A stretch of 64,000 nt of DNA from a virus (IMGVR_UViG_3300025162_000052:3309-67308); one strand, 5' to 3'; positions 5,393 to 53,200 are shown, numbered from the stretch's first letter. The notes: a model not told the origin generated them from the letters alone. Numbers and translations are program-made.

Positions 5393-5499
5393 ATGAAATA
5401 GATTTAGAAAAAAAAGAATACGAAGGATGTTTATTTATATTAATAGTAATACTAACTATATCATGTTTAATCGGATTAATATATGGATACTTCTTTTAA
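5386..5499 (+). CDS. 37-aa single-TM peptide
   Basis: MVNEIDLEKKEYEGCLFILIVILTISCLIGLIYGYFF*; overlaps both neighbouring genes. Confidence 0.55.
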   Translation: MVNEIDLEKKEYEGCLFILIVILTISCLIGLIYGYFF

Positions 5500-8408: not shown

Positions 8409-8579
8409 ATGCCAGTAACAACATATCCTATTAACGGAAAAGGTGAAAATGAATATTGTGTAGATGAAATTATACAATATACAGATGATGTAGATTATCA
8501 AAAAAGTTCACCAACAATATTTGAAACTAATTTTGAACAAAAACTATTTGGAATAAATGAGCAAACTGAAAAAGACTAA
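8409..8579 (+). CDS. small acidic hypothetical protein
   Basis: 56-aa ORF MPVTTYPINGKG...EKD*; starts 1 nt after the upstream stop. Confidence 0.5.
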   Translation: MPVTTYPINGKGENEYCVDEIIQYTDDVDYQKSSPTIFETNFEQKLFGINEQTEKD

Positions 8580-8988
8580 AATAATTGATGAAGATTTAAT
8601 CACAATTGAAAGTGATTTTAAAAAAGCTATAATTAATCAATCTCATAGTTTATATAAACCTAAATATTATAAAGCAGGAGAATTTGATGTAATAGAATTC
8701 TGTAATAGACATGAATTAGGGTTTAGTGAAGGTAATATAATTAAATATATAACACGTGCTGGAAAGAAAGATAGTAAGACTAAATTAGAAGATTTAAATA
8801 AAGCTAAAGAATATTTAGATAGATTAATTAAATGGAATAACACTAATATAATAAGTATTGATTTAGCAAGTAAAGAATATGGAGACACATATAAACAACT
8901 ACAAAAAGAAGTACCTGATATGGATGAAGATTATTATTTAAGAAATACTATAAATATAATTAAAAATAAACGTTTGAATAATGAATGA
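8557..8988 (+). CDS. DUF3310 (T7 gp1.7 nucleotide kinase-like) protein
   Basis: P.YY..G...VI.F......F..GNIIKY..RAGKK.....EDL.KA..YL signature. Confidence 0.85.
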   Translation: MSKLKKTKIIDEDLITIESDFKKAIINQSHSLYKPKYYKAGEFDVIEFCNRHELGFSEGNIIKYITRAGKKDSKTKLEDLNKAKEYLDRLIKWNNTNIISIDLASKEYGDTYKQLQKEVPDMDEDYYLRNTINIIKNKRLNNE

Positions 8989-9611: not shown

Positions 9612-10118
9612 ATGGAACTTAAAAAGAGAATATCAGAAGAAGTAGAAAAACTACTTAATGAACGAATTAAAGGTGAATATCAATCAGCATACATTTATTG
9701 GGCTATGTCTAATTGGTGTGATTGTTATGGATTCTTTAAAGCTAAAGATAAATATCGTAAGTATGGTGATGAAGAAATTAGTCATGCTAGAAAATTAGAA
9801 GATTATATTAATGATAGGAATGGTAAAGTAGTGTTACAAGTTATTCCTGTACCACAACAAGAATTTAAATCATTACTAGATGTTATTACTAAATCTTATG
9901 AGCATGAACAAGTAGTAACAGATAATTATACTAAATTAGCAAGTGCAATATTTAATACTGATAAAGTAACGTTTGCAGAATTACAATGGTTTGTTACTGA
10001 ACAAATAGAAGAAGAAGCTAAGTTTGCTGATGCTATTATATTTGCTAACAGATTAGGTATTACAGATGAAACAACTGGTGTAGAGTTAGCAGAATTAGAA
10101 GATTTTCTTACTAAATAA
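9612..10118 (+). CDS. ftnA: non-heme ferritin
   Basis: LLNE.I..E..SAY.Y.AM..W, EE..HA, EHE..VT and LQWFV.EQ.EEE ferroxidase-centre pattern; 168 aa. Confidence 0.88.
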   Translation: MELKKRISEEVEKLLNERIKGEYQSAYIYWAMSNWCDCYGFFKAKDKYRKYGDEEISHARKLEDYINDRNGKVVLQVIPVPQQEFKSLLDVITKSYEHEQVVTDNYTKLASAIFNTDKVTFAELQWFVTEQIEEEAKFADAIIFANRLGITDETTGVELAELEDFLTK

Positions 10119-12218: not shown

Positions 12219-12539
12219 ATGAGTAATAAATATTACCCAATAGACTTTGCTTATGAAAGAGTAGGAGGAGGAATTGATTTTGTAGGAATACATAATCAAA
12301 TGCCTGGTATAAATTATGGATATTTTTATATAGATTTTGAATGTGACGACAAAGAATATTTTAGAAAAGGTAATGTATTAGTTGATAATACAGGAAAATA
12401 TCAAATAGAGTTAATAGATGAGCCTATTAATTTTAAATATAGAATAAATAGATATAAATGTAGAGTTAATAGTACTAATCCTAATAGTTATATTCCTGTA
12501 GAAAGATTACAGAAAGGGGTACTATGGAAAAAGTTATAA
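12219..12539 (+). CDS. stand-alone paralog of the major capsid insertion domain
   Basis: Aligns end to end with MCP residues ~82-178 (see findings). Confidence 0.7.
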   Translation: MSNKYYPIDFAYERVGGGIDFVGIHNQMPGINYGYFYIDFECDDKEYFRKGNVLVDNTGKYQIELIDEPINFKYRINRYKCRVNSTNPNSYIPVERLQKGVLWKKL

Positions 12540-18688: not shown

Positions 18689-20227
18689 ATGGCAGTACAA
18701 AAAGGTCAAGTTCGACCCTTTCAATTATATGAGGGTCAATGGCATACTGGGTTAACAATGGAAACCCACTTAGCCAATATGTATAAAAAGATGCCTTATT
18801 ATGCATCTGATATGGTAGAGAAAATGTTCGAATCTACTTTTGGAGACGATATTATTTCTCATGTAAATCAATATCCTGTATTTAAAGCTAAAGATAGAGT
18901 ATATCGTTGGTTAGGTGTTGGTATGACAGAGAAGAATATTCCTTTAATTCAAGCATGGGAAGATAAATCAGGTAGTATTCCTGTAGGTACATCTACACCT
19001 TATATTGGTGCAAACTCTACAGATTTCTTCTTAGATTTTGGAGAAAAGTTGTTTGGTAGTAAACAACATATCGTAGGTATGAAACCTGATCTATATAGAT
19101 TATGGATTCTTGAAGAACCTACAATGATTGAAGCTGGACGTTGGAGATACAGGTGTCAATTAACTGGTTCTGATGGGGTATATATTCCTAAAGAAGAGTT
19201 AAAAGCTGGAACAAGATGGTCAGGTGATGGTGGTTTGGTTGCAAATGACTTTTCACGTGATGGTTATCAACCTACATTTACTAGTCCATTTGAATTTGAG
19301 AATAGAATGTCTCAATTCCGTACTATGATTAAAGTACCTGGTTCAGTTTATCGTGAAGGTAAATATGGTGATAATGTTTATATGTTCAAATTCTTAGATT
19401 CTGATGGTAATCAACACAAAATTTGGTTTGATGCATATTGGTACACATTTTTAAAAATGAACAGAGTTGATAGAGCTAAAAAATTCTTGTATGACAAATC
19501 TAACAAATTAGCTGATGGAACAACTGCTAACGTAGATTCACAAACAGGTATGCCAGCAGATGAAGGTTCAGGATTATATGAACTTATGTCAGCAGGTAAT
19601 ATTCACCCATACTATCCAGGTGGTTTATCAGTAGATTATATCACTAAAGTTATTTTGGATGCATCTGTAACTAAAGTGCCTGAAGATAAACGTGCTATTA
19701 CAATTATGGCAGGTGAATATGGTCTAGTAGATTTGCATAAAATGTTACGTAGAGATTTGATTTCTACATATACAACTCCAGCTTATATGGGGGATACTAC
19801 TGGTCGTGCTTATCAATGGTCAGGTAATAAAGTTCATGTAAACTTAGGTCAGATTACTGGTTATGCTGATGTTAATGGTGTTAAAGTAACATTCATGCAT
19901 GCTCCACATAAAGATAATCCAACTCGTAATAAATTGTTATATCAAAATGGTGGTCGTGCTAGTTCATACGAATATGATATTTTAGACTTTGGTACTACTA
20001 ATGGTCGTCCAAATATCCAACGTGTAGAATTAGAAGGTGAGAATGATATTTACGCATTACAATTAGGTATTAGATCAGCATTTGGATCTCGTGGTTCTGA
20101 AAAGATGCCAGCTATAGTATCAACTGAAACAGATATGGATGTTATCCATTATATGTCTTGGATTGGTTCTATTATTTGGAATCCTACTAAGGTTATTAGA
20201 TTAATACCTGCTGTTCTTTACAGATAA
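18689..20227 (+). CDS. major capsid protein (HK97 fold, crAss-like)
   Basis: 512 aa; W.GLT..HL, YRW, GSGL.E, GEYG, NG.KVTF.H.P..D; codon choice typical of a highly expressed gene; synteny. Confidence 0.93.
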   Translation: MAVQKGQVRPFQLYEGQWHTGLTMETHLANMYKKMPYYASDMVEKMFESTFGDDIISHVNQYPVFKAKDRVYRWLGVGMTEKNIPLIQAWEDKSGSIPVGTSTPYIGANSTDFFLDFGEKLFGSKQHIVGMKPDLYRLWILEEPTMIEAGRWRYRCQLTGSDGVYIPKEELKAGTRWSGDGGLVANDFSRDGYQPTFTSPFEFENRMSQFRTMIKVPGSVYREGKYGDNVYMFKFLDSDGNQHKIWFDAYWYTFLKMNRVDRAKKFLYDKSNKLADGTTANVDSQTGMPADEGSGLYELMSAGNIHPYYPGGLSVDYITKVILDASVTKVPEDKRAITIMAGEYGLVDLHKMLRRDLISTYTTPAYMGDTTGRAYQWSGNKVHVNLGQITGYADVNGVKVTFMHAPHKDNPTRNKLLYQNGGRASSYEYDILDFGTTNGRPNIQRVELEGENDIYALQLGIRSAFGSRGSEKMPAIVSTETDMDVIHYMSWIGSIIWNPTKVIRLIPAVLYR

Positions 20228-33064: not shown

Positions 33065-33415
33065 ATGGTATTATCACAAGAAATTTTCAACAAAATAAAT
33101 CCTATTTATAGTAGTAATACAACTATATTATTAACAGATAGCAATGAAAGTGAAGGAGTAGGGAGTTATATAGATATTACTACATCTAAATCTGGTATAG
33201 GAATTTTAATATTTGGCAATGGAGTAGGATATGCTATATTTATGTTTTCTACTGATGGTATAGTAACATTTATTATTAACAGTGCCAATGTTTTTTCTAC
33301 TATACAAACAAATACTAATCATGTAATAATAAAGGATAATGGGTCAAATGTTAGAATTACGAATGAATTAGGGTCAACTATTGCATTTACATTAATAATT
33401 AATTATACTAATTGA
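33065..33415 (+). CDS. hypothetical beta-rich structural protein
   Basis: C-terminal I.D.G..VRI.NELGS motif. Confidence 0.6.
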   Translation: MVLSQEIFNKINPIYSSNTTILLTDSNESEGVGSYIDITTSKSGIGILIFGNGVGYAIFMFSTDGIVTFIINSANVFSTIQTNTNHVIIKDNGSNVRITNELGSTIAFTLIINYTN

Positions 33416-33416
33416 T

Positions 33417-33971
33417 ATGATAGGACAACGATTTTCACAAGCTTATACAGATGTGCACGTAGAAGTAACAAGTGCAACAAGTGGAGGGACTGCGTGGGTA
33501 TATGAAACTATAAGTGGTACACCATTTTTATGTGGAAAATTACTTAATAATAGTACTGATATGTTTCAATTTAAAGCTGAAATGCCACATACTAGAAACA
33601 TAGGAAGTGTATTAGCTGATATACATTATCATTATATTATAGATGCTAATGCAACAGGAGCAGATCAAACTGTTATTTGGGATATAAGTTATTGTTGGTT
33701 AAAAGCAGGAGATGTAATGCCTGCAACTGCAAGTTGGACAGTTATACCAACAATAACACAAGTATTAACTGGTACACCAGTTGCAAGAACTTATGGGTTA
33801 TACCAATTTTCAGTTAATTTACCATGTCCTGTTGGAGAAACTTATGGGTCAATGTTATTTGTTCAAGCAATTCGTGGGAATGGAACATATACTGGAAAAA
33901 TAGCAATTATTGATGCTGGTGCACATTGTGCAATGGATAGAAATGGAAGTATTAATGTAACAACAGATTAA
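33417..33971 (+). CDS. beta-sandwich structural protein (head-fibre/spike-like)
   Basis: F..EMPH, H.H, V.W...Y.W and H...DR.GS pattern. Confidence 0.55.
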   Translation: MIGQRFSQAYTDVHVEVTSATSGGTAWVYETISGTPFLCGKLLNNSTDMFQFKAEMPHTRNIGSVLADIHYHYIIDANATGADQTVIWDISYCWLKAGDVMPATASWTVIPTITQVLTGTPVARTYGLYQFSVNLPCPVGETYGSMLFVQAIRGNGTYTGKIAIIDAGAHCAMDRNGSINVTTD

Positions 33972-33978: not shown

Positions 33979-34890
33979 ATGTACAGTACTTCTGATATAA
34001 TATTTCACATAATTACAATGATTAGTTTTATAGTTATAATAATAATGTTCCTGTATCTTACAGTTAAACTGAGTAAAGTTGAATATATAATTAAGAATAG
34101 ACTATTAAATAATACATACAAAGATTTATTAGAAGTAATGTACAAAAGGATGAGAGATATAGGTACAGGAACATTAGCTGAGTCTATATTAATAGATTAT
34201 ATTAAATATAAAGTCAATAATATATATAATGGGTATAAACAAATTAAATTAAATGGATTTAAATTACTTAAAGACCCGCAATTTGTTAGAACATTCCTTA
34301 GTGATGGTAGAATGTTATTAGAACAAAAATATGACAAATTTCCAGAAGAGTTTTTAAATAAAATTAATAGTATTAATCAAACTAACTTTAATGAATTTGT
34401 TAATGTACTAGAAGGAGAGGTACTAGATGATAAAATTACTAGGAAATTTGAATTTTTAGAGTTATTGAAAACACATACTATAGGGGTTACAGATAAAAAT
34501 ATATATTCTATTGTTAAGTTATTTAATGATACAAAACATTTAATAGAAGATGATAATTTTTTAGTAATGTACCCTGAGTTTAAAAATAAAGTGGTTTTAA
34601 AAGAAAATATAAAGACAGAATATATTAGATATAAAGATATAGCTCAATTAGATATATCTCAAATTAAAGGAATGATTGGTACAGGAAAAAGTGAATTAAT
34701 AGAAGAAGCTATACATTTACTAAATATGTTTGTTAAATTAAAAAATAATAATCAGTTGAGTAATGTATTATATGTACTATCGTCAAGGTTTAATGAATGG
34801 TATAGGAAATCTTTAACTGGTGTTAATAATGATGAAGAAATTATTAATATTAAAACATCTATATTAGAAATAATCGACAAATTAAAATGA
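33979..34890 (+). CDS. membrane-anchored protein with C-terminal EAD11-like domain
   Basis: N-terminal TM helix; C-terminal IKGMI..G....EAI..L...L..LSSRFN...R..L.G......I.IK.SILEIIDKL. Confidence 0.65.
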   Translation: MYSTSDIIFHIITMISFIVIIIMFLYLTVKLSKVEYIIKNRLLNNTYKDLLEVMYKRMRDIGTGTLAESILIDYIKYKVNNIYNGYKQIKLNGFKLLKDPQFVRTFLSDGRMLLEQKYDKFPEEFLNKINSINQTNFNEFVNVLEGEVLDDKITRKFEFLELLKTHTIGVTDKNIYSIVKLFNDTKHLIEDDNFLVMYPEFKNKVVLKENIKTEYIRYKDIAQLDISQIKGMIGTGKSELIEEAIHLLNMFVKLKNNNQLSNVLYVLSSRFNEWYRKSLTGVNNDEEIINIKTSILEIIDKLK

Positions 34891-35267
34891 GTACAATGAT
34901 AATTATACAATTTGTAATAAAGTTTTGGGGAACAATTGTAAAAATACTTCTCTGGATAAAAAGTAAATTTATTAAAAATAAAACTATGGATGAGATAGTA
35001 AAATTTGTTAATACTGTAGATAATGATAATAAAGTATTAAACAAACAAAATATAAAAAATCTTATAACTTATGGAGAAATTGGCACAATGGATGCCATTA
35101 ACGAATTATTAAGTTTAGTAAAAGATGAACAAATATTGAATATTTTATATACAATGAAAGGGGAATTAAATACATTAACATTACGAAAGTTGTCTGGAGC
35201 TACACAAGCAGTAGAACAAATTAATGATTTACGTTTAAGACTATCATCACTAATTGATAAATTATAA
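34887..35267 (+). CDS. membrane-associated protein with EAD11-like domain
   Basis: Hydrophobic/amphipathic N-terminus; IKNLI..G....AI..L...L..M.G.LN.L....L.G......IN.LR..L.SLIDKL. Confidence 0.6.
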   Translation: MSTMIIIQFVIKFWGTIVKILLWIKSKFIKNKTMDEIVKFVNTVDNDNKVLNKQNIKNLITYGEIGTMDAINELLSLVKDEQILNILYTMKGELNTLTLRKLSGATQAVEQINDLRLRLSSLIDKL

Positions 35268-35959
35268 TGCGAACAATATCATCTTATTTAGATGAGTTAA
35301 GAGTCGAAATTGGTAGATTAGATAAGGTTGACTTAAAGTTTTTAGACAATAGAATGTTATATCAACTGATAAATAATCAAAGGAATATATTCTTAAAGAA
35401 TGAATATAATAAAGGAAGATCTGTTGAAGATAATACTAAACAGATAATTAATGGAATAGAGTTGGAAGTAGTAAGTACTTCCACATTCTTTCCAGTTAAA
35501 GCGGATACTAGAATATTAAAAAGTAAACAACTTATTCCTTTACCAATAGAACTTACACACTCATTAATGATTACTAATATACGTAATAGTAGTATGATTA
35601 GTATACCATATAATTACGTACATCGAGATAGGTTTATTTATGCAGGTAATGGAAAATTTAATACCAAAGATATATATGTTACCTTATATGATAAACACTT
35701 ATATATTAAACTTAGAAAGGATAATCCTAAAATAGCAATGTTAACTCATATTTCTATAGAAGAAGTTGCTGAAAATCCTGTTGAAGTTTATATGATGGGT
35801 AATACAGGAACACGAATGGATTATGATCCTTTTGATGAAGTTTATCCTATAGGCGAAGCTATGTGGACATATATAAAGGGATATATATTACAAGTAGATA
35901 GTCTTTCAATGACTAATATAAAATCAGCAGGTACAACTGCAAATTCAGACTTACAATAA
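35267..35959 (+). CDS. tail ring protein
   Basis: L.S...IP.P, Y.GNGK, LY.K, AENP and D..YPI motifs of crAss ring proteins. Confidence 0.75.
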   Translation: MRTISSYLDELRVEIGRLDKVDLKFLDNRMLYQLINNQRNIFLKNEYNKGRSVEDNTKQIINGIELEVVSTSTFFPVKADTRILKSKQLIPLPIELTHSLMITNIRNSSMISIPYNYVHRDRFIYAGNGKFNTKDIYVTLYDKHLYIKLRKDNPKIAMLTHISIEEVAENPVEVYMMGNTGTRMDYDPFDEVYPIGEAMWTYIKGYILQVDSLSMTNIKSAGTTANSDLQ

Positions 35960-36462
35960 TGAGTAACGTACCAGCTAAAACAAATCTTATAGAATGTTAT
36001 AATAAGTATAATACTATGAGTAGTAACCCTATAGATAAACAATTATATTTTAAAATAGTAAAAGACTTTAATGAACGAATCATTAATAAGATAGTAGAAG
36101 GTGGGTATGAGTTTATAATGCCATACAATTTAGGTAGTGTATTCATAAAGAAAAGAAAGATAGAATTTAAATTTGATGAGAATGGTAATTTTTTAAGTAA
36201 GTTCACTAAAGCAGGAGTTAATTGGAAAGCTACTAAAGATTTATGGATACTAGATAACAATGCTAAAGAAAATAAAACTTTAGTATGGAATGATAATAGT
36301 CATACTGATGGGTTCAAATATAGATTTTTTTGGGATAGAGGAAAAACAGGTAACGGAATTAAAAATATTCTAAGTTATAAATTTATGGCTAATCGTGTAC
36401 ATGGTAAACGCAACTTAGCTAAAGTATTAAAACAAGGTACTAACATTAGTTATTATTTATGA
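35959..36462 (+). CDS. IHF/HU-like protein (crAss gene53-like)
   Basis: MP.NLG...IKK, VNWKAT..LW, N.HTDG.KYRF.W and F..NR..KR.LAK motifs. Confidence 0.8.
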   Translation: MSNVPAKTNLIECYNKYNTMSSNPIDKQLYFKIVKDFNERIINKIVEGGYEFIMPYNLGSVFIKKRKIEFKFDENGNFLSKFTKAGVNWKATKDLWILDNNAKENKTLVWNDNSHTDGFKYRFFWDRGKTGNGIKNILSYKFMANRVHGKRNLAKVLKQGTNISYYL

Positions 36463-37184
36463 TAGGCAATTATGTTTCTTTATTCGATATTATAGAAAGA
36501 GTACAGAGGTTATTACCTACATTTGTACAGATAAATATTTCAGATGCTAAAGAATGGACTTATGAAGCAATAAGAACAATAGGTGGAAGATACACTAATA
36601 TTCCAGAAGTATTGGAATTAACTGTTGAAAATGGTAGATGTAAAGTACCATCGTATGTAGAAGCTGTTAGAGGGGTATCGTGTAATAATATTCCATTAAC
36701 TTATACTCCCATACTTAATCCTGCATTAATGTATCAATATACAATAGTACAAGGTTATATTTATTCAGATATTCAAAGTGGTACAATATTAGTATATATT
36801 TCAATATTTCCAATGGATAATGATGGTAATCCATTAATACCAGACTTAGGGTATTATGTAAAAGCAGTTACTCATTATATTGCAGAAAGATTAGCTTTTA
36901 AATTATATTTAGAAGATAAACTCACAGAACGTAAATATAATTTATTACAACAAGAATGGATATTCTATTGTGGTAGTGCTAAAGCTTCTAGTTTAATGCT
37001 TAGTGAAAGTGAAGAAGCGGACTTTACTAATCATACTATGAGAGTAATCCCTAAAATGCATAGAGGAATACAAGTAGTTAAAACTACTAGAAATATACCG
37101 AAGACTGATATGAGTAATTTAAATGATTTAATAGTAACACAACAACCAGTAGGATATGGACTCCCTTCAACAAACAACGATTAA
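36459..37184 (+). CDS. tail tubular / adaptor ring protein (P22 gp4-like)
   Basis: EW..EA...IG, P.D..G.PLIPD...Y..A...YI and W.FYC..A motifs; lies upstream of the muzzle. Confidence 0.8.
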   Translation: MIGNYVSLFDIIERVQRLLPTFVQINISDAKEWTYEAIRTIGGRYTNIPEVLELTVENGRCKVPSYVEAVRGVSCNNIPLTYTPILNPALMYQYTIVQGYIYSDIQSGTILVYISIFPMDNDGNPLIPDLGYYVKAVTHYIAERLAFKLYLEDKLTERKYNLLQQEWIFYCGSAKASSLMLSESEEADFTNHTMRVIPKMHRGIQVVKTTRNIPKTDMSNLNDLIVTQQPVGYGLPSTNND

Positions 37185-40100
37185 CCAATATTTCGAAGGA
37201 CTAGATAGGGATACTAATAAACATGAATACAAAAGTACTAAATACTTTAATTTAGAAAATGGTAAGATAGTTAGTCAAGATGGATTATCTAGTGTTACTA
37301 TATCTAATGTAAAAGGTACTATTCCAATACTAGACAGTAATGGTAATCATATAACTAGTATAACTGGTTATACATTAGTAGGATGGTGTAACTTAGGGGC
37401 AGATATTATATTATTTTATTCTAGTGATACAACAGATAAAGGACAAATTTATAAACTAGTTCAAAATACAGAATTAACTTTTAGTATAACTTTAATATAT
37501 GAAGATGATAATTTAAATTTTGGTAATGTATTACAGGCTATAGGAAGATATGAAAATGAGTATATCCAAAAAGTATATTGGATAGATGATTTTAATAATA
37601 TGATAAGGAGTTTAAATATAGTATCTAATAGTTATCCTATAACACTTGATGTAGAAAAATTAAATATTGTACAAACTACTGACTTTTCAACTCCACAATT
37701 TAGTTCCTTTACTAGTGGAGAATTACAATCTGGTGTAATACAATATGCATATAGATACTATAATTTGAATGGTATAGAAACTATGTTTAGTCCATGTTCT
37801 GCTATAATACCATTAACTGCGGAACGAGAGACAATAGGAGTATCTTTGTATAAAGGAACTGCACCTAGTATTAATACTCAAAAAGGAGTAATTGGTACTA
37901 TAAGTAATTTAGATTCTAGTTTTGATAGAGTAGAAATTGTATCAATATGGTATGGCTCACTTAATGGAACACCTAGCATTAATGTTGTTAGTAGACAACC
38001 TTTTTCAAGTACTGTTACATTTACTGATACAGGAACATATATTGCAAGTTTAACATTAGATGAGTTTACATTATTAAGTAATCCATTATATGCTAAAAGT
38101 ATTGCAATAAAAGATCAACGTATGTTTTTAGGTAATATACAAGAAGACGTATTTTGGTCACAAGCTATACAAAATTGGGACGCTAGAGCTTATAGATTTG
38201 CAGATAGTTCTAATGATGTATATCTTTCACATAATGGAACATTAACATTGTATAGTGATATTGCTGATGTACCTGATGATAATGATGCTATAAATCTTAC
38301 TAATATTATATCTAATGATGGTAATATGAGTGATGAATATAGACAATTTTATCAACAGGGTAGTAGTGTATTAGGGGGTACAGGAATAAATATAAGTTAT
38401 ACTTTTAATGCTAGTGATTATTTAATAGATGATGATAGTACAAACGCTTGCCACAAAGCTACTATAGATGCTAATAATATTAATGAACAATTAGGGTTAA
38501 AGAGAAGTTGGCAACGTGACGAGATTTATAGATTTGGAATAGTATTTTATGATAAATATGGTAGAAGTAGTTTTGTTAAATGGATAGGTGATATACGTAT
38601 ACCACATTGGGATGGCAATAATAAATATGTTAATTATACTAATTCATTATTATATGGGCGACATATATATCCTATATTTACAGTATCAAATTTACCAACT
38701 GATGTAATATCATGGCAAATAGTATATGTTAATAGAGGTGTATATGATAAAACTGTTGTTGCTACTGGATTGGGGTTAGGGTTAGAAGATAGTTATGATG
38801 TAGATGGTAATTTTGCATGTACTATATGGGTTAATAATCCTAATACTACTACAGCTAATAGTATTACAGATAGAAGAAATGGAGATCTTAATTGGGCTAA
38901 ATATTATAATATATTAGAGTTTGATTCTCCAGAAATAGTATATGGTACACAAGAAGTATCTGGAGATTATATAGACTTAATAGGTTATTTTACATTAGGC
39001 ACTAGAACTGTTGCATTACGAGATATTTTAGATCCAGTATTTAGACAAACTAAATATAGAGAATTTATAGGGAATCCTAATATAGATTATAGTTATAGAA
39101 GACGTAATATACAAGATTTACAATTTTTACATCCAGGACAAAATACTAATGTCAATGGACACCCATTTACTAATGTAGGAGATAATGATGGAACTCATAA
39201 TTCGTTTCCCCCTTTAGTAGATTATGAAGAAACTTGTTCTCATTGTACTAAATGGATAGTAGGAATAGATAATGAATATGGAGTAACTAACCCATATTTT
39301 AATCTTGTTACTAATATTGGAGTATTTTCAGTTAGAAAAAATGTAATAGGTTACGGTGGAAATACTTTTAATGATAGATATAATAATAGTTATATATCAG
39401 CTAGTGACAGAATAAATGTAAATACTAATATAGCGATATGTTATTATGGAGATACATATATCAATATGATAGAGGAATTAAGGTGTATATGGCAAGATAC
39501 ACTACATCCATCTCAAGAATGGATGTATTATCCTTGTGAGAGTAGTGTTAATCCAGTATTTGATTATGGGTATTCTCAATCTAAAAGTCTATCAATAAGT
39601 GCACCTACACCTAAAGGATTGTTATTAGATACATATTGGTTTACAGATTATGTATGGCAAACTGAAGATAGATTATATATATATAATAAAACATATTCAC
39701 AACAATATAATATTCATACATTTTTTCCTGTACCATTAGATATACAGTTAACCACTAAATATCCTTATCAAGTACGGTATAGTGACGCAAAGTATGATGG
39801 TGAAGAAATAGATTCATGGTTAAAATTTAGACCATTAAATAGTAATAATGTAGTAGGAAACTATGGAGAAGTTACATCTATAGTAGAACAGACTAATCAA
39901 TTATATTGTTTTCAAGAACATGGAGTATCTGCTATATCATCAAATAGACAGGAGTTATCATCTGCAAGTAGTGGAATTCCTGTAGTATTAGGTAAAGGTG
40001 GGGTACTTGATAGATTTGATTATCTTAGTACTGAAATAGGTAATCAATTTGGAGATTATATTGTAACAACAGCGTCTAATATATATTGGTTAGATAGAAG

Positions 40101-41532
40101 TTTACAAAAGATGTATCGTATAGGAACAAGTGGTATGGAGACATTAAGTGATACTAAATCTGTTGGTAGTATATTTAAAAATGTAGTAGATTTATATACA
40201 ACATTTGATGGTATATACGATATTAAGAATAATAGATGTTACTTTACAGTACATAATACATATCCTAATTATCTAGCTACTGTTACTTATATTAGTACAG
40301 GAATATATAGGTTATCATTAGATTTAACTAGTATAATCACTAGAGGAACAAGTAATAATACCTTATTACAATTAGGTAATACTTATGAATTTTCCTATAA
40401 TGGAATAGTAGGTACATTCAGAGTTAATAGTATTGATTATGTTAATTGGACTATAACTGTTGAAGATTTAGATAATGTAATTAATGATGTTACACCTAAT
40501 TATACAATAGATTTATCAGAGTATATAGACTATAAGAATCAATATACATTATCATATAATGAGTTTGTAGATGGTTATGAATCATTCCATTCGTTTATAC
40601 CGGATTGGTATTTAACTAATAACAATTCATTAATGACATATAAAGATACAGAAAAAGAAATATTCCTACATAATACAGGAATATATGGTAATTATTATAA
40701 TGCATCTGATATATATCCTATGAGATTAGATATTATAGTTAATAATAATGGTAAAGCTATACGAGAATTCAATAATATAAATTGGAGATCAGAATGTACA
40801 GTTGGTAATCAAGATTTAAAAGATGAAACGATAAAGTATATATTAGCAGAAAATAACTATCAACAAACTGATAAGATTAAATTATACCAAATGTTAGACG
40901 ATGATTATATATTCTTTTCAGAGTCTATAAATCTACCTAGTACTAGTTGGTCTGCTAGTGGAACATATACTGAAAACTCAGTAGTTCGATATACAGATGA
41001 TAAATTATATATAGGTATAGGAACACCGATTAATGCTAGTGATACTCCTAGTATAAGTTCTAAATGGGATGAGTATAAATTATGTAATTTACGTAGAGTA
41101 AAAAGACAATGGAATACAGGAATTCCTAGAGATGAAGATAATTATCTTAATGTACCAACATATAGTGTAACATTATATCAAGTAGGAGATGCAGTACAAT
41201 ACAAATATAAGCGGTATATATGTAAAGTAAAGGTACAAACATATAGTGTTAGTCAATGGTTTAATACAGATGAATGTGTATTATATAGTGGCGCGATATA
41301 TAAAAGTAAAACATCTCAAAAGGGAGTAACTCCAACAGGAGCTAGTTGGGCTAATATAACAAGTTCATTTATACCTAGTGGAACTGATGATGACACAATT
41401 TACTGGGAATATAGTCCATTATATAATCGGATGTTAGATACTTATGTAAGGGTAAATTTATGGTATATTAATAAAGATAATCATAAATTTGTATTACATG
41501 ATATGCAAACAACATGTGAAATACAACCATAA
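37156..41532 (+). CDS. muzzle / tail stabilization protein (P22 gp10-like)
   Basis: 1458 aa; F..GL.RD, K.YW.D, QYAYR, R.F.GN, RDEIYRFGIVF, GDTYI, GEEIDSW..F and SF.PD.Y motifs. Confidence 0.88.
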   Translation: MDSLQQTTINQYFEGLDRDTNKHEYKSTKYFNLENGKIVSQDGLSSVTISNVKGTIPILDSNGNHITSITGYTLVGWCNLGADIILFYSSDTTDKGQIYKLVQNTELTFSITLIYEDDNLNFGNVLQAIGRYENEYIQKVYWIDDFNNMIRSLNIVSNSYPITLDVEKLNIVQTTDFSTPQFSSFTSGELQSGVIQYAYRYYNLNGIETMFSPCSAIIPLTAERETIGVSLYKGTAPSINTQKGVIGTISNLDSSFDRVEIVSIWYGSLNGTPSINVVSRQPFSSTVTFTDTGTYIASLTLDEFTLLSNPLYAKSIAIKDQRMFLGNIQEDVFWSQAIQNWDARAYRFADSSNDVYLSHNGTLTLYSDIADVPDDNDAINLTNIISNDGNMSDEYRQFYQQGSSVLGGTGINISYTFNASDYLIDDDSTNACHKATIDANNINEQLGLKRSWQRDEIYRFGIVFYDKYGRSSFVKWIGDIRIPHWDGNNKYVNYTNSLLYGRHIYPIFTVSNLPTDVISWQIVYVNRGVYDKTVVATGLGLGLEDSYDVDGNFACTIWVNNPNTTTANSITDRRNGDLNWAKYYNILEFDSPEIVYGTQEVSGDYIDLIGYFTLGTRTVALRDILDPVFRQTKYREFIGNPNIDYSYRRRNIQDLQFLHPGQNTNVNGHPFTNVGDNDGTHNSFPPLVDYEETCSHCTKWIVGIDNEYGVTNPYFNLVTNIGVFSVRKNVIGYGGNTFNDRYNNSYISASDRINVNTNIAICYYGDTYINMIEELRCIWQDTLHPSQEWMYYPCESSVNPVFDYGYSQSKSLSISAPTPKGLLLDTYWFTDYVWQTEDRLYIYNKTYSQQYNIHTFFPVPLDIQLTTKYPYQVRYSDAKYDGEEIDSWLKFRPLNSNNVVGNYGEVTSIVEQTNQLYCFQEHGVSAISSNRQELSSASSGIPVVLGKGGVLDRFDYLSTEIGNQFGDYIVTTASNIYWLDRSLQKMYRIGTSGMETLSDTKSVGSIFKNVVDLYTTFDGIYDIKNNRCYFTVHNTYPNYLATVTYISTGIYRLSLDLTSIITRGTSNNTLLQLGNTYEFSYNGIVGTFRVNSIDYVNWTITVEDLDNVINDVTPNYTIDLSEYIDYKNQYTLSYNEFVDGYESFHSFIPDWYLTNNNSLMTYKDTEKEIFLHNTGIYGNYYNASDIYPMRLDIIVNNNGKAIREFNNINWRSECTVGNQDLKDETIKYILAENNYQQTDKIKLYQMLDDDYIFFSESINLPSTSWSASGTYTENSVVRYTDDKLYIGIGTPINASDTPSISSKWDEYKLCNLRRVKRQWNTGIPRDEDNYLNVPTYSVTLYQVGDAVQYKYKRYICKVKVQTYSVSQWFNTDECVLYSGAIYKSKTSQKGVTPTGASWANITSSFIPSGTDDDTIYWEYSPLYNRMLDTYVRVNLWYINKDNHKFVLHDMQTTCEIQP

Positions 41533-44783: not shown

Positions 44784-47291
44784 ATGAGTAGATTTTGGAC
44801 AAGGCGAGATAATCAAGGTACATCACAATATGTACCTTTACCTCTTGATTTTATAGCAGGTAAAATACAACAAGAACAACAAGGATTAGATGTAAGTAGA
44901 GATGCTGTAACTAATGCTATATTAAAGAGTGGGTACATAAATGCACAAACAGGGGATTATAGAAATTTAGATCAAACTCAATTATATTTACAAAAACAAA
45001 AAGAAGTACAACAAAAGAAAGAAGCACTTATAGATGAATTAAATAAAGACCCTTATGCATGGAAAGATGTGTATAATAAAACTAATAGAATGAAACAAGA
45101 ATATTATACTGACCCTGATATAATAAGAATGGAAGATGCATCTAAACATTATGATGCGTTATTAAAAGAACGTAATAAATTAGGTAAAGACTATAGAAAT
45201 TATAGAGACCCTTATACTGAAATGAAAGGAGTTACTACTAATGAAAAGGGAGTTATAACAAATGCAAATTCATTTGAATTTACCGGATTAAAAGGGTACT
45301 CAGATAGACATATAGAAGGTAGTAAAATAATGGAAGGATTTAAAGCTAGTGGAGAGAAAACAGGATATAGTTTTGTAAATCCAATTACCGGAATGATAGA
45401 ACATCATACAGGAGGTAGTGAACAAATAAGTCCACAACAAATTGCACAATTTGTAGGAATTAAACCTTATATTGATGTAGATGAAAAAACAGGTAAATCT
45501 ATTATGAAGTTTAATGTGGATGGAACAATGAATGAAACAGTTAATAATTTTTTAACTAGCAATGGAGGACAAGATTTTATAGATGAAATGGCATTTAATT
45601 ATAAAAAAGCAGGTAAAGAATTAACTAATGATGATATTATAAAAAAAGCCAAATTATTCTTATATGAAATAGGTAGTAAACAAATTTTTAATAAATCAGA
45701 AAATGATTTTACTATGAAAAATGATGCTGTTCATGCAGGAAAAGAAATAGAAAAATTTAAAAGAAGTCTGAACGCTGAAGTTCCAATATATGCCCCAGTA
45801 GATAATACATTAAAAACTCCAGAAGATTATAATAAAAAGAAAGTAGATTTACAAAAAAGTAAAACAGGATTAGTTAGTATAGAAAATACATTAAATACTA
45901 ATTATAATGATATTGGTACAGAAATGGGTGTACAAAATGATAAAGATATTATACCAAATGGAGTAAACATTTATTTAGGTAAAGATAAAATATCTACAAC
46001 TAAAAAATTAGTACAACAAGCTAATCAAGCTATCAATCCTGATAGTAATACAATTGACCTTGAAAAATTAGCTAAAATAAATAGTAATCACCCTATATTA
46101 AAATATAAGAATGATAAAGATAAAATAACTAATATTACACAGGGTATATTATTAGTAAATGGACAACAACAGGAGTATAATAATGTTAGAAACAAAGTTG
46201 TTGAAGTAGAAAATCATATTAATGCTATAGATAATGAGATAAATAAACAATATAATTTAGAAAATGAATATAATAAATTAGAAGATAAAGATAAAAAATT
46301 ATTTAAAACTAAAGATGATTTTATTAATTACATTAAAACAAACGACATTAAATATGCAGATTTAAGTAATCAAGAACAACGTATTGGTAATTATACAACA
46401 TCTGAAGATTATTTAAGACAGTTTGATAAAATTAAAAATAAATATAGTGAAGTTAAAAATGAAATATTAAAATTTAATCCTTCATTAGGTATAGAAGGTA
46501 TGACTTATGAACCCGGTAAAAATAGTACACAAGATAAATATTTAGACCAAATAAATAGATTGTTTAAAGGAAATAAAGATGCTGTAGGTAAATTGAAAGT
46601 ACTTAATAGTTCAGAAAATATAAATGATAAAATAGCTAATGGTGAAATTAAAGACCTAGATGCAAGCAATATTAAATTAGTACCGCATACAGATAATAAT
46701 ACAGGTAAAACTAGTTTTATAATGTATTATAATAATTTAAAACCAGATAAAGATGGTAATTTAATACCTACTAAAGAGTCTAAATCTATTAAAATAGAAG
46801 CAGACGAAAGTACTGTTAAAGCATGGAGAGATGGTATATTACAAGGAGAAACAGAAAATAATGTTAAACATCAAAATGGTTCTATGAGTAGTACAAGACA
46901 TAATCAAGTTAAAAATCAATTAGGTATAGGATTTGCAGAAACTATGTTTAAAGATCCAGAAGTAATTAATGAAGGCACTTTAACTAATCTTAAAATAGGT
47001 GACGCTGTTACTCAACAAGCTGATAATATATATATACCTAATACAGAATTTACTGTGATAGGTGGTAAAGGTACAGGAAAAGATAGATTGTACACTATTA
47101 AAATAACTAATACATCTACAGGGGAAGTATTAGAAAAACAAGCAAAAATATCTGCTATAAAACAAATTATAGGTAGAGTAGGTATAAGAGCAAGTGAACA
47201 TTTAAATAGTAGTAATTTAGAAGTAAATCAAGGACTTACTTTACAAAACAAGATAAAGGAAGAGTTTAATAAAACTGATAAGAATGAGTAA
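44784..47291 (+). CDS. virion cargo protein 2
   Basis: N-terminal SQYVPLP.D motif; helical; lies between cargo 1 and the RNAP. Confidence 0.7.
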   Translation: MSRFWTRRDNQGTSQYVPLPLDFIAGKIQQEQQGLDVSRDAVTNAILKSGYINAQTGDYRNLDQTQLYLQKQKEVQQKKEALIDELNKDPYAWKDVYNKTNRMKQEYYTDPDIIRMEDASKHYDALLKERNKLGKDYRNYRDPYTEMKGVTTNEKGVITNANSFEFTGLKGYSDRHIEGSKIMEGFKASGEKTGYSFVNPITGMIEHHTGGSEQISPQQIAQFVGIKPYIDVDEKTGKSIMKFNVDGTMNETVNNFLTSNGGQDFIDEMAFNYKKAGKELTNDDIIKKAKLFLYEIGSKQIFNKSENDFTMKNDAVHAGKEIEKFKRSLNAEVPIYAPVDNTLKTPEDYNKKKVDLQKSKTGLVSIENTLNTNYNDIGTEMGVQNDKDIIPNGVNIYLGKDKISTTKKLVQQANQAINPDSNTIDLEKLAKINSNHPILKYKNDKDKITNITQGILLVNGQQQEYNNVRNKVVEVENHINAIDNEINKQYNLENEYNKLEDKDKKLFKTKDDFINYIKTNDIKYADLSNQEQRIGNYTTSEDYLRQFDKIKNKYSEVKNEILKFNPSLGIEGMTYEPGKNSTQDKYLDQINRLFKGNKDAVGKLKVLNSSENINDKIANGEIKDLDASNIKLVPHTDNNTGKTSFIMYYNNLKPDKDGNLIPTKESKSIKIEADESTVKAWRDGILQGETENNVKHQNGSMSSTRHNQVKNQLGIGFAETMFKDPEVINEGTLTNLKIGDAVTQQADNIYIPNTEFTVIGGKGTGKDRLYTIKITNTSTGEVLEKQAKISAIKQIIGRVGIRASEHLNSSNLEVNQGLTLQNKIKEEFNKTDKNE

Positions 47292-50200
47292 TACAAATGA
47301 TTTATATAATTATTTAAATCCATCTGATAATTCTGATAAAGAAATAGATGAGTTCTTGAAGCGGGCTATAAAAGCCCCTTCTTCTACTCCATATTTACCA
47401 ACAGGTGTTGAAGGTGAAAGTAGAATATATGAAATACCAGAAAATGTAAAAAACTTTGAAGGTTATGTAGATTTAACTAAAACTAATTTAGGTGATTGGA
47501 ATAATGTATTAGAACAACGAGCTAAGAATCAAAGTTCATGGGAAGTAGCAGGAAATGCTGCGAAACGATTTGGAGCTACTACACTAACTAAATTTGGACA
47601 AGGTGTAGGATTTATAGGTGGATTTTTAGATTGGGCATCTGGAGGATTTGGTATAGATAATATATCTAAGATGACTGATAATGGAGTTAGTAAGATGTTT
47701 GAAGGATTAGAAAACTGGGCAAAAGAACAATTACCTATATACCACACTAAAGCATATACAGAGGGTAATGTACTACAAAAAATGGGTACATTAGGATTTT
47801 GGGCTGATGATGCAGTAGATGGATTTGCATTTATGGCTAGTGCTATGTTACCAGGTGGTATATTAAAAGGTATAGGAACAGGTACTAAATTTGGAGTTAA
47901 AGGATTACAATTAGGTAGTAAAATATCAGAAGGTGTTGAAGGATTATTTAATACTGCTAAACAAGAAGGTAAAATATTTACTAATTTAGTTACTAGAGGT
48001 GCAGCAGGGGATAAAGCATTAGAAGGTAGTAAAGTTTATAACTGGGTTAAAAATGCATTTGGTGCAAATAATATAGACCGTAATTTAATTACTACTTGGA
48101 ACACTATAGCTGAATCTGCTATGGAGGCTAGAGATGCTAAAAGACAGACGTTTGAACAACTAGTTAAACAAACTGGTAAAACTGAAGATGAATTAACTCC
48201 ACAAGAAAAACAAGATTTAAATTTAAGAGCTAGTAAAGTAGCATTAAATACATTCGGGGCTAACTTATTTATAGTAGGGTTAAGTGAACATTTTATGAAT
48301 AAGATGTGGGGTACATTAAAACCTGAAGAAAAAGCTATACAAAAGGAATCTAAAAATATATTAGAACCAGTATTAACACCATCTATTAAAGATTATGGTA
48401 AAATGATAAAACGTAATGTATTAAGTAATATGTTACGTGAAGGTGTATGGGAAGAAAATAGTCAATTAGCAGTAAGTGACTTTTTCAGAGAAAGCGAATT
48501 AGGTAAGGATAATAGAGATTTTGTATCTGGGTCATTTGGTAATATGATTAAAAACTTTACTACTGATGAAGGGCAACAAAATATTATATTAGGAGCAATA
48601 ACAGGTATATTACCTGGAGTATATCATGGTTATCATCAAGTTAAAGCTGATAATAAGTTTAGTAAAAGCATGCGTGATAATTTAGTTTATCATTTTAATA
48701 ATATTAAACAAGGTATTACTTATGCTTATGAAAAAGATGAACAAGGTAAACCTATATTAGCTAAACCTGAAGATATTTATCAAATAGATGGTATTAAATT
48801 AAATCCAACTAAATTAGACGAACTACATAAAGGATTAGCAGATTGGTTTGAGAAAACTGGTATAGTTGCTCAAATAGATCCCAAAGGTGTGGGTAGTCAA
48901 ATTAGAGATTTATTAGATTCTAAAGCAATGTATTATTATTTAAATCAAGATGGTGGGTTAGATGTACTAAAAGGACATGTTAAACTTGCTACAGAACAGA
49001 ATTTAAGAGATGCTGAAAAAAATGGTATATTAACTCCAGAATATGAAAAAGAACAAAGAGAGTTAGCAGATAATAGAATAGCACAAGCTGAAAAGTTTAA
49101 CGCATTAAATAAGCACTTACAACAAGGTAGAATAACTAATATTGATTTAGGTAAAGAGAATGATGAAGTTAGAAGTTTCAGAGAAGTTATGTTAATGAAA
49201 CAATATGATAAACTTACTGATGTTCTAGCATATAGACAATCATCTAATAAACAAGGTGAAGACACTTATCATAATTATGATGGTTCACAGGTACAGGAAC
49301 AAAAGAAAATACAAAGTACTATAAACTTAATTAATCAAGACAAATTAAGTGAAATAGATGATAAATATTTGCAACAAATTGGTATAACTAAACAAGCTTT
49401 AACTAATTTACCTAGTAATGAAATTATATCAGTTAAAGAAAAACTATTAAATAGTCTTAATAAACAAAATGATAATTTAAATAAATCTGTAGAAAAAGAT
49501 AGAACTAGCTTAAAAGATGCTAATAAAGAGTATGAAAGACTTACTAGTGAAAAAGGAATAAAAGAAGAATTTGAACTTTATAAAAAAAGTAAAGTAGAAC
49601 ATGAAGTAAAGGAAAAAGAAATTAAAGATACTATTAAAAAAGATAGAGAGTCTTATAAAAGTAATACAGCATTTGATATATTAGGTAATGATTTATTTAA
49701 TACTGAAGATAATACTAATACTTTATATGGTAAATTTGTAGATGAAAGTAATATACACCCTGACCATAAAGAAAAACATAAAAAAGAATATAGAGTTAAA
49801 GAAGATTTTACAGATAGTTTAAAAAATGCTGAACAAGTTATTAATGATAATATAGAAAAGTTCTATAATAAAGATGGTGAAATAGATAATAATGCTGTAC
49901 AACAATATGCAGCAGAAGCTAATATACTAAAATCTTTATCACCAGAAAATGCAGTTAAAGTTATTAATCAAGTACTACAAGAAGATAAAAGTATAGAAAA
50001 TAAACAACAAGTATTAGATAAAAATAATAAGGTATTAAATACTTTAGGTAAAGATGGAGAAGAACTTTTTCCATTATCTGATGATATTAAAGATATTAAA
50101 GATAAAGATAAAGTTACATTATCAGAACAAGAATCAACTAGATTAGAGAATACTGAAAAATCTATAATAGATAATTTAGGGGTTAATAGAATTAAAGTAG

Positions 50201-53200
50201 TTAATAATACTAATCTAAATGATGTTAAATATTTTGAAACTACTGATAACATAACTGATTTAGTAAAGGAATTTGATAGATTAGGCTTAAAAGATTATTC
50301 ATATTTTAGAGTAGAAAATAGTTCTATAGAAGCTTTAGAAAATAATCTTAAACAATATATAGAACATATACCAGAATCAATAACTAAGTTATTTACTCAA
50401 TTAAAAAAACAATTAGAAGATTTAAAACGTGTACAATCTAAAGGTAAAATAACTAAGTTAATTGCTAATAATTTAAAACGTATAGATGAAAGTTTAGCTA
50501 AATTAAATAAAGAATTAGAAAAACTTACATCTGAAAATACTAATGTTAAAAGTTCGGTATTATATTCAGTACTAGAACGTGGTAATAGAATAGGTGCAGG
50601 AGTACATGAAAAAGTTTCCTATATGCCATTTGCAGAAGGTGAATATCAAGATAAAATTCCTGGACATGATTATAGTGGGGAGGTACTTGATAATTATGCT
50701 AAAATATTAGATGAAAAAGTATGTGAATTTCATGTAAGACCAGATAGTAATCAATCATATAGTCAAGATAATGCTGCTGAAAAATATATTAATAATGAAT
50801 TTGCTAAAGGTAAAGGATTAAAACAAATATTAGTAGAACTTAGAAAAAATGTATTTTTATTAGGAGAGTTAAAAACTGCAATGAATAGTTTAGATTATAC
50901 AGATGTAGATGATATAGGACAACAAGAATTAGCAATGTACGATTTGGTTAATATTAAGTTAGTAGACGAAGATAAAACTAGAAATCCTGATACTATAGAA
51001 TTATGGATACATAAACCACGTGTATTGATATATGAACGAGAGAAATTAAATAAAGAGTTAAAAGATGTAGAAGATGAGCAAGAGATTAAACGTGGAGAAA
51101 ATATACTAGAATCTACTGATGAATCTTTAGATAATCTACGAGAACGGCGAAAAATATTAATAAATAATATACGTAATAATCCTATCATTAAAATTGATAG
51201 AAAAATAGGTGGTAGAATATTTGTAGGAAATACTAAAGTTGGATATGATAAATTTGCAGGTCAATTATCAGGTAAAATAGAGGGTATTTATATAAAGACT
51301 GAATCTGGTAAGTTTGAAGGGATAGATGGAAAAGTATTAGATACTAAAATATCAGATAGTTTTAATGACTACACTTCAAATGGTAATGTAATAGTAGCTG
51401 TAAAAGATGGTGATAATATTAGACTTATTTTATTAAATGTAGATAACATAGGAGAAGAAACTATTCCGTTAATACTACAGATATTACAACATAAAGTTAA
51501 TAATGAACCACATACTCAAGAAATCACAGTAGATGGTCATATTAATGGTAAGTCTATAAAACTAACAGGACAATTAGGTGATGTATTTGATACATTCTTA
51601 AAGTGGAATCCTTATGTTAGATTAGATAGGGATGGTAATGTAGTTAGAGAATTATCTGATAATAAAACACCATACAGATTTGAATTAGGTAATAAAGAAG
51701 GTAAATATGGTATATTATTTGGTAAAGATGGGTTTATTAGTAAAGATGCTATTAATGACTTAACTAATCCTATATATAAAGATCAATTAAATAATTTTAC
51801 TAAATGGCTACAAACTACTAAGAGATATAATATTGATAAAAGTAAGTTAGGTAAAATTAGTAATGTATTATTAAATAAACAGAAACTAGATTATAATAAC
51901 TTTATAACAAACTTCTTATCTACTAAAGTTCAAGTATCTGGTAAAGGAAAATCTGCCAGCGTGTCTAGTTTTCCTACATTAATATTAGACTACGATGGTA
52001 TAAAATATGAGAAAACATTAGAAGTTGTATCTAAATATGAAGATGTATTAGATAAGGAATTAACATTCGAAGAATTTGTTAATAAAACAGGTGTAGATAA
52101 TAAAGCATTAGTAAATGTATTAAAACAGACTATAAAATCTGTACAGGATAAGACTGGTAAAGAGATAAAGATCGTTATAAAAAGAATGGATGATTATGGA
52201 TTCATTACTGATAATACTATCACTCTGTCTACCAATACTTTAGAAAACCATACATCTAGTTCTATATTATCTACTATAGCTCATGAGATATTACATGCTT
52301 ATATAAATAATAATATAACGTCTAAACAACGTATTGAATTAGCACAAGAATTTAGTAATATATTAACTGCTGTAGTTAAGAATAGTATATTAGATGATAA
52401 TACTGTAAATAGTCTATTAATTAATTGGATTACTAGAAGTAGAGAATTACCTAAAAGTGACCCTACTAATAAAGATAGATTAACTATAGAAAATGAAATA
52501 GCAGAATATGTTAGAAAAACTGTTAATAAAAATAATTTTACTGAATATAAGATTAAAAGTATTGCTAAAACATTAGTAATATTATGTAATCAAACTGATG
52601 TAACAGATGAATTAATAACTTATACTAGCACTAATCCTATATTCGCTAAGTTTCTACAAAGTATTAATGTTGAAACTACTAATGAAAAGGGAGTAACTGT
52701 TAGTAAGAGTTTATATGCAAGAATAATGGAACTAATTCATAATATAGTTGATGCTATTATACCTAAGTCATCATTTACTAAAATATACGATATATTAGCT
52801 GAAAATGAGATAGAGAATAAAGAAAAGATAAGTGTTCAATTTGTAACGGAAAAAGTTGATACTAAATCTATAGTTAAAGAAACTGAATTAGAAAAGATTG
52901 ATAGAGAAGAACAACTAAAAAAAATAAATAAAGACTTAGAAAAAGAATTAGATAGAAATGAAGTATTTGGAATAGATAATAGAATTTATTTACCTAATAA
53001 TGAAATAACAGTTTATGATAAAGAAGGAAATAAGCACATTTTAGATGGTAGAGTTGTAGAAAGTGGTGCTGGAATGGGAGTAAAAACAAAATGGATATAT
53101 GATGGTAAATTAGGAGATAGACTAAAAGGAAATATTCCAGACTTATATTATAAACCTATACAAGAAATACAACAAAAATATCAACAAAAAAGAGATGAGT

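Follow-up and report, generated by a model that had tools for sequence, protein, structure and literature searches.

A pair of predicted membrane-tethered EAD11 proteins in the tail operon of a divergent crass-type phage

Why would a phage encode, among the genes of its tail, two copies of an adaptor domain that in Bacteroidota is linked to immune effectors, and no effector to go with them? The question is raised by positions 33,979 to 35,267 of a 64,000-nucleotide stretch of viral DNA (the window), which corresponds to bases 3309-67308 of the 67.3-kb IMG/VR virus record IMGVR_UViG_3300025162_000052 and to which all coordinates refer unless stated otherwise. Two genes overlap here, encoding the proteins that we call P0001 and P0002. 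An initial annotation of this DNA had read both as membrane-tethered proteins ending in effector-associated domain 11 (EAD11), and had proposed that they act as decoys for host immunity or, alternatively, as a holin/antiholin pair. We tentatively favour a form of the first proposal: the two proteins may be cytoplasm-facing, membrane-tethered, EAD11-only adaptors that interfere with EAD11 immune assemblies of the host.

Effector-associated domains (EADs) are described by Kaur, Burroughs, Iyer and Aravind in the main texts of PMC7159879 and PMC8195603 as small terminal adaptors, occurring in several copies per locus, of NTP-dependent conflict systems, and are proposed there to bring effectors to NTPase cores through homotypic binding. 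The name EAD11 is absent from both main texts; PMC8195603 counts 12 EADs. According to this proposal EADs wire immune sensors to suicide effectors, as Death-fold domains do in animal apoptosis, and the evidence for it comes almost wholly from genomics. Phage proteins that have retained the adaptor but not the effector offer a direct experimental handle on the wiring. If the phage pair does bind and disable host EAD11, this would be proof of the homotypic 'EAD principle', and would mean that decoys consisting of an adaptor alone are employed by phages as they are by animal viruses.

Domains of P0001 and P0002

The two open reading frames (ORFs) lie where they had first been placed, at 33979-34890 (303 amino acids, aa) and 34887-35267 (126 aa), and divide as follows.

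33979..34890, plus strand: P0001, 303 aa, with an N-terminal membrane helix, a helical middle domain and a C-terminal EAD11
33997..34065, plus strand: predicted membrane helix of P0001, approximately residues 7-29, N-terminus out and C-terminus in (Kyte-Doolittle hydropathy, KD, 2.95)
34108..34575, plus strand: helical middle domain of P0001, approximately residues 44-199, specific to the phage family (alignment A1)
34654..34884, plus strand: EAD11 of P0001, residues 226-302, four helices (PF19964)
34887..35267, plus strand: P0002, 126 aa, in which a putative diverged EAD11 at the C-terminus is preceded by a short linker helix and, at the N-terminus, by a helix of weak hydrophobicity
35043..35264, plus strand: EAD11-like domain of P0002, approximately residues 53-126 (hhalign, HMM, AlphaFold2)

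P0001 belongs to a family of 36 cluster representatives, recovered by a HMMER search of 1.84 billion representatives at E <= 0.001. Most members are 250-340 aa long and align end to end, with a common architecture of a transmembrane helix, a helical domain of ~150 aa and EAD11. Alignment A1 holds 26 of the 36; those left out (P0013, P0018, P0020, P0031, P0033, P0036, P0037 and P0039-P0041) are for the most part short, or align with P0001 over a limited stretch. The Pfam model of EAD11, PF19964, is matched at E <= 0.01 by 22 of the aligned members, with a best value of 1.5e-14. For P0001 itself, hmmscan gives E 1.2e-5 and 25.7 bits over positions 3-79 of the 80 in the profile, just below the cut-off of 26; in a six-frame search of the phage's own record P0001 reaches 28 bits, above the cut-off, and is the sole EAD11 match reported. 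A profile built from 15 bacterial EAD11 domains scores this part of P0001 at 23.5 bits. AlphaFold2, run with alignment A1, returned a whole-protein pLDDT of 88.7 and placed helices at residues 4-42, 46-197 and 226-302, the EAD11 part comprising helices 226-234, 238-254, 258-279 and 285-302. By these profile matches, the C-terminal domain of P0001 is an EAD11.

The Pfam check suggested for both proteins was thus positive for P0001; the Pfam model is silent on P0002. For the smaller protein, the assignment to EAD11 finds its support in other comparisons, which point to a diverged member of the family at its C-terminus. When the family profile A1 was compared with P0002 by hhalign, the match had a probability of 93.2% (E 3e-7) over 78 columns and fell exactly on the EAD11 part. 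With an HMM made from the 15 bacterial EAD11 domains alone, P0002 aligned to model positions 4-79 and scored 14.1 bits, a value reached by none of 2000 shuffled P0002 controls, of which the top one scored 11.3 bits. The AlphaFold2 model (alignment A7) has a pLDDT of 95-98 in the EAD11 part, with helices at 53-60, 64-77, 81-102 and 107-125 that repeat the four-helix pattern of P0001; this model was built on an alignment with the P0001 family and is not independent of the homology call. A Foldseek search of the PDB with the P0002 model found nothing at E <= 0.001, the top rows being FliS and cytochrome b562-type bundles.

The homology of the two C-termini to each other, as originally proposed, is borne out. 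BLASTP aligns P0001 203-302 with P0002 48-126 at 27% identity (E 7e-5), and the best non-self match of P0002 among 43 EAD11 domains is P0001, at 31.6 bits, by a small margin over the next at 30.4. The shared ending that had been noted is nearly exact: P0002 ends in IDKL and P0001 in IDKLK. A word search with P0002 found only P0002 itself, and the protein may be a lineage-specific partial duplicate. Prediction of a complex between P0001 222-303 and P0002 45-126 gave a score of 0.00, which, as the run was made without controls, is evidence neither way.

A hydrophobic N-terminus and a membrane tether had been claimed for both proteins, and the claim holds clearly for the larger one. P0001 has a Kyte-Doolittle 19-mer maximum of 2.95 at residues 7-25, the mark of a clear membrane helix, and the helix is flanked by no lysine or arginine on its N-terminal side and by three on its C-terminal side. 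The same features recur across the family: 31 of the 36 members have an N-terminal hydrophobic 19-mer (KD >= 1.6), and in all 31 the C-terminal flank carries more lysine and arginine than the N-terminal flank. Among the five members lacking the helix there is at least one short gene call, P0017, which gains a hydrophobic N-terminus from an upstream ATG in its locus (L114). Given the positive-inside rule, this charge bias suggests that the middle and EAD11 domains face the cytoplasm, the compartment of the bacterial EAD11 partners. P0002 is less hydrophobic: its maximum is 1.96, over residues 4-22, a stretch that includes the lysines K12 and K19.

What the initial annotation had overlooked is the conserved helical domain of about 150 residues between anchor and EAD11, by reason of which P0001 is not merely a tether plus an EAD11. 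Alignment A1 shows no variation at its residues N44 and Y86, and hardly any at L114 and N133. At E <= 0.001, Pfam, PHROGs and PADLOC contain no family that matches the domain; nor do they match P0002 outside its EAD11-like part. Foldseek comparison of the P0001 model with the PDB and BFVD gave no match at the same threshold. The best hit of a wide VIA-align search had a Z of 9.8, to designed helical bundles, which lies in a range generic for helical proteins; the ESM Atlas yielded no usable feature match, with structure rows at TM <= 0.35 that came from a poor model. One lead from a comparison of the A1 profile with PDB sequences, 2kc7_A (E 0.003 over 46 residues), was dropped, because a bona fide bacterial EAD11 protein itself finds no PDB sequence.

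The absence of an effector, which had also been claimed, is upheld by Pfam, PHROGs and PADLOC, none of which detects an enzyme, an NTPase or a known defence domain in P0001 or P0002. Even at E <= 10, the only Pfam families listed for the pair are EAD11, Propeptide_C1, AI-2E_transport and CSTF2_hinge, and PHROGs at E <= 1 returns weak rows of unknown function only.

Genomic setting and relatives

By its virion genes, the source of the DNA is a divergent crass-type phage (crassvirus). The record has a CheckV completeness of ~70%, so that ~30% of the genome is missing, and the window has a G+C content of ~27%. PHROG matches in the window include a large terminase, a portal and a major head protein; the capsid protein is 21-30% identical to those in 112 GenBank records, mostly Crassvirales; and Pfam identifies CrAss_Ring_3_4, CrAss_Ring_2 (1.9e-23), CrAss_Ring_1 (3.1e-34) and the muzzle family crAss_MUZ (5.6e-161). 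The pair lies between the tail-fibre block and the Ring-2/Ring-1/muzzle genes, and these ring and muzzle neighbours agree with its initial placement in a tail operon. The adjoining genes are as follows.

33065..33971, plus strand: two upstream genes encoding proteins of 116 aa and 184 aa with no function assigned; their linkage to the P0001 gene is conserved
35267-35959, plus strand: Ring protein 2 (Pfam CrAss_Ring_2), in the same coupled gene string
between Ring 2 and Ring 1, plus strand: 167-aa phrog_12177 protein (PHROGs)
36459-37184, plus strand: Ring protein 1 (Pfam CrAss_Ring_1)
37156-41532, plus strand: muzzle protein (Pfam crAss_MUZ)

Only 7 nucleotides separate the stop codon of the upstream gene from the ATG of P0001; the sequence ATGA contains both the stop of P0001 and the start of P0002 (an overlap of 4 nucleotides), and TAATG both the P0002 stop and the Ring-2 start. 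To judge from these junctions, the P0001, P0002 and Ring 2 genes are tightly coupled in translation. Three studies contributed metagenome runs with near-identical DNA of the pair, taken from freshwater, lake water and freshwater sediment; some of these runs are possibly the record's own source. Contigs of four runs covering the pair differ at a single site, 34233 G>A in a third codon position, and with so few differences no test of selection is meaningful.

Genomic context could be seen for 3 of the 36 clusters in the family. One relative, P0008, is 46% identical to P0001; its gene lies on a metagenome contig of 2.65 kb (L015), directly 3' of homologues of the two upstream genes, and the contig ends before the 3' neighbour of the P0008 gene. 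Within its lineage, the P0001 gene has thus been kept in place, as far as this relative at 46% identity. The other context is quite different: an 11.5-kb fragment of an unrelated phage, listed as a 'provirus' in IMG/VR (locus L114), carries a family member with its own EAD11 match (E 2.5e-9), flanked on one side by a capsid-like gene and on the other by DUF2586, tube-like and tape-measure genes. A second EAD11 gene was not found in the 11.5 kb of this fragment, and the 90-aa ORF that follows the family member was rejected as an EAD11 partner, with an hhalign probability of 0.2%. That a family member stands in a fragment of this kind tempers the view of the phage as lytic, put forward in the initial annotation.

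Among GenBank phages, DNA and tblastn searches found no relatives of the region or of P0001, and no usable locus came from IMG/VR when it was scanned with P0001, Ring 2, P0008, P0009, the N-terminus of the muzzle protein, A5 and A6. Neither the A1 family nor PF19964 was present in any of 13 GenBank records chosen from the capsid matches (E <= 0.01), namely 11 Crassvirales or crass-like records, Flavobacterium phage Fpv1 and Dulem virus 41; in the last of these, the genes preceding Ring 2 encode unrelated fibre-like proteins. This argues that the P0001 gene is an accessory and not part of the core equipment of crassviruses. From its distribution, the P0001 gene is a mobile accessory that inserts itself among the genes for virion proteins.

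Cellular relatives were sought in an even sample of 401 Bacteroidota genomes. EAD11 is present at the cut-off in five of these and at E <= 0.001 in eight; the five positive genomes hold from 1 to 7 copies each, with adjacent pairs in three. The 15 bacterial EAD11 proteins are joined to SIR2_2 (4), CHAT (2), TIR_2 (1) or Roc-COR (1), or to no other Pfam domain (7). The statement of the initial annotation that EAD11 is an adaptor of immune effectors in Bacteroidota is therefore matched by TIR, SIR2 and CHAT fusions and by the general account of EADs in the main texts of PMC7159879 and PMC8195603. EAD11 in Bacteroidota would on this account be a homotypic docking module that links TIR, SIR2 and CHAT to NTPase cores such as Roc-COR.

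Membrane segments, judged by eye from the sequence, are present in some of the bacterial EAD11 proteins that have no other Pfam domain. At one locus (L107) EAD11 is combined with a coiled region and a C-terminal anchor, and at two others (L108 and L110) with a membrane segment and an extracytoplasmic part. These three proteins may be cellular counterparts of the membrane-anchored form in phages. The A1 profile matches bacterial EAD11 proteins in 4 of the 401 genomes, all of them EAD11-positive, and only through its positions 201-289; positions 1-200, the phage-specific part, have no match in the 401 genomes.

The phage proteins therefore resemble bacterial EAD11 proteins in their all-helical terminal domain of ~80 aa, which gives profile matches in both directions, and in having a further copy in the adjacent gene, the neighbours being each other's nearest relatives; some bacterial members, too, are membrane-anchored and free of enzymes. 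In contrast to the bacterial systems, the phage proteins carry no TIR, SIR2 or CHAT, there is no NTPase core on either protein or elsewhere in the record, and EAD11 is encoded in a tail operon and shares its protein with a membrane helix and with a helical domain for which the 401 Bacteroidota genomes gave no match. With respect to the 'EAD principle', as given in the main texts of PMC7159879 and PMC8195603, the phage copies share the terminal position, the copy in an adjacent gene and the closest kinship between neighbours, whereas no copy is fused to a core NTPase and none to an effector or signalling enzyme. The EAD11 domain itself is known. The literature searched yielded no paper on phage-encoded EADs and no description of this architecture, nor of a small EAD11 protein as its apparent partner in the tail operon of a crassvirus; the supplements of the EAD papers, as distinct from their main texts, may list phage hits.

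Possible roles of the pair

If the pair does interfere with host EAD11 immunity, P0001 and P0002 would be made together with the virion proteins, and their N-terminal helices would hold both at the cytoplasmic face of the inner membrane, firmly in the case of P0001 and weakly in that of P0002. The C-terminal four-helix EAD11 domains would then be presented to the cytoplasm, where they could dock onto host EAD11 proteins. Since the phage copies lack an effector, docking would most likely cap these host proteins or sequester them at the membrane. The effect would be dominant negative, with effector recruitment stopped while late phage proteins accumulate. Two diverged paralogues, 27% identical, could cover two host EAD11 specificities or form a heteromer. 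Terminase, portal or capsid proteins are the triggers of many STAND-type sensors in bacteria, and a blocker co-expressed with the late genes would therefore be sensibly timed.

Effector-less adaptor decoys are known from eukaryotic viruses and cells, in the form of the vFLIP death-effector-domain proteins, the pyrin-only proteins of poxviruses and the CARD-only proteins. The phage pair would have in common with these domain-only decoys that a virus encodes an adaptor, devoid of an effector, which could cap homotypic immune assemblies. It differs in belonging to another fold family and to another host kingdom, in being membrane-anchored and in having an additional conserved domain.

Several points weigh against this interpretation. 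The middle domain, and not EAD11, is the best-conserved part of the P0001 family, which the decoy model leaves unexplained, and it may be this domain that carries the real activity of P0001. The case for P0002 as a second tethered adaptor is the weaker one, its anchor being marginal, with two lysines within the segment, and PF19964 being silent on it both at E <= 10 and in the six-frame search of the record. The single EAD11 gene of the provirus fragment indicates that the pair is not a general feature of the family. EAD11 is rare, at 5 of 401 sampled Bacteroidota genomes. Anti-defence genes are more often early, and the pair lies in a late tail operon. Finally, we infer both the binding to host EAD11 proteins and its inhibitory outcome, and with them the decoy activity itself.

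Among the other explanations, one dispenses with host immunity altogether: P0001 would work at the membrane in morphogenesis or ejection, and its EAD11 bundle would serve only to pair it with P0002 or with itself. Such a phage-internal role, in assembling the virion or delivering its DNA, would suit the location of both genomic contexts within virion gene blocks (tail fibres and Ring 2 here; capsid, DUF2586, tube and tape-measure genes in the provirus fragment), the translational coupling to a ring protein gene, the superior conservation of the middle domain and the fact that, of the EAD11 domains compared, that of P0001 next door is the one nearest to P0002. We nevertheless think it unlikely. 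The 0 of 13 crass-like records with the family or with EAD11 imply that no conserved crassvirus structure needs the family; the occurrence of the same gene in two unrelated virion types would be unusual for a structural part; and the reciprocal profile matches make the C-terminal domain a genuine representative of an adaptor family of bacterial immunity. Alternatively, P0001 could be a sensor or scaffold at the membrane which recruits, and thereby co-opts, host effectors of the TIR, SIR2 and CHAT types that bear an EAD11 tag, for example in superinfection exclusion or, in proviruses, by adding a defence specificity to the lysogen. Bacteria do possess enzyme-less, membrane-anchored EAD11 proteins of their own, as at the three loci described above, a family member is found in an IMG/VR 'provirus' fragment, and the conserved middle domain could be the sensor. 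We hold co-option to be highly doubtful, as the genes stand in the late operon of a virulent-looking crass-type genome, where no integrase or repressor family is matched among the scanned ORFs of the record (Pfam, PHROGs), the record holds no NTPase core, and the recruitment of suicide effectors in the phage's own late phase would be self-defeating.

The alternative offered by the initial annotation, in which P0001 would be holin-like and P0002 antiholin-like, with the small protein restraining the large one through EAD11-EAD11 pairing, has received little support, and we consider it distinctly improbable. The pair does resemble the T4 holin T and antiholin RI, or LydA and LydB of P1, in being a late pair in which the larger protein crosses the membrane once and the other is small, here with a more weakly hydrophobic N-terminus and a matching soluble domain. 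Furthermore, no family named as a lysis protein was matched among the scanned ORFs of the ~70%-complete 67.3-kb record; with ~30% of the genome missing, this absence is weak evidence. The pair departs from those lysis systems in lacking a sequence or profile match to them, in its predicted orientation and in lacking an adjacent lysin gene. None of Pfam, PHROGs and PADLOC gives a lysis match at E <= 0.001, the weaker rows are not lysis families, and a lysis PHROG is matched by 0 of the 26 aligned members of the P0001 family. No endolysin or spanin gene stands beside the pair, whose neighbours are the tail-fibre-block genes and Ring 2, although lysis genes may lie in the missing part of the genome. 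The T4 T/RI interaction is periplasmic, unlike the cytoplasmic placement of the soluble domains that the charge bias predicts here, and the family member in the provirus fragment has no small EAD11 partner.

A bolder variant of host EAD11 interference, to which we assign very little probability, would place P0001 in the virion. The protein would be packaged and ejected with the DNA, much as other short-tailed phages have internal proteins that enter the membrane; at the entry site its helix would become embedded in the inner membrane, and EAD11 would face the cytoplasm from the first seconds of infection, as the earliest blocker of the EAD11-wired TIR/SIR2/CHAT network of the host, with P0002 as a partner or chaperone. 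Virion-packaged anti-defence proteins encoded among late genes are known, such as IPI* of T4 and DarA and DarB of P1. The location in a late or structural block is shared with these proteins; there is no homology, and the packaging of P0001 or P0002 is pure conjecture. If true, P0001 would be the first phage adaptor decoy of the 'death-fold type', and one delivered as virion cargo.

Other features of the record

Downstream of the muzzle gene, two large unmatched ORFs (1049 and 835 aa) are followed by one of 4675 aa on the plus strand (47284-61311), which has no Pfam or PHROG match at E <= 0.001 and whose position suggests a giant virion protein of the crass type. A RepL-like ORF of 171 aa (61711-62226, E 1.7e-4) then precedes the gene of an ART-PolyVal ADP-ribosyltransferase protein of at least 591 aa on the plus strand (62227-63999, open at its 3' end; PF18760, E 8.9e-18). 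Just upstream of the terminase, a 106-aa ORF on the plus strand (12219-12539) matches positions 100-172 of the 496 of Crass_capsid (E 4.1e-7) as well as phrog_11589; it is an apparent capsid fragment, distinct from the full capsid gene at 18689-20227.

The beginning of the window holds a stretch of ~2.5 kb (545-3075) with almost no ORFs of at least 45 aa under code 11, in which the alternative codes TAG=Q and TGA=W open none either; the GC skew changes sign here, and the stretch could be a divergent regulatory or origin region. Further on, on the plus strand, two glycosyltransferase genes are clustered with one that is methyltransferase-like (5483-8407), near which lies a DUF3310/nucleotide-kinase-like ORF (8557-8988). 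The phage also encodes a ferritin-like protein on the plus strand (9612-10118; PF00210, E 6.8e-29). This gene was considered as a clue to the host and dropped: its best cellular relatives are 34-44% identical, and since they are scattered over Bacteroidota, Lentisphaerota, archaea and others, the ferritin is not diagnostic. Upstream of the window, the record encodes on the minus strand a 359-aa repeat protein (1666-2748 of locus L115) that matches many PHROGs of unknown function, among them phrog_7713 in six stretches (E 7.7e-63).

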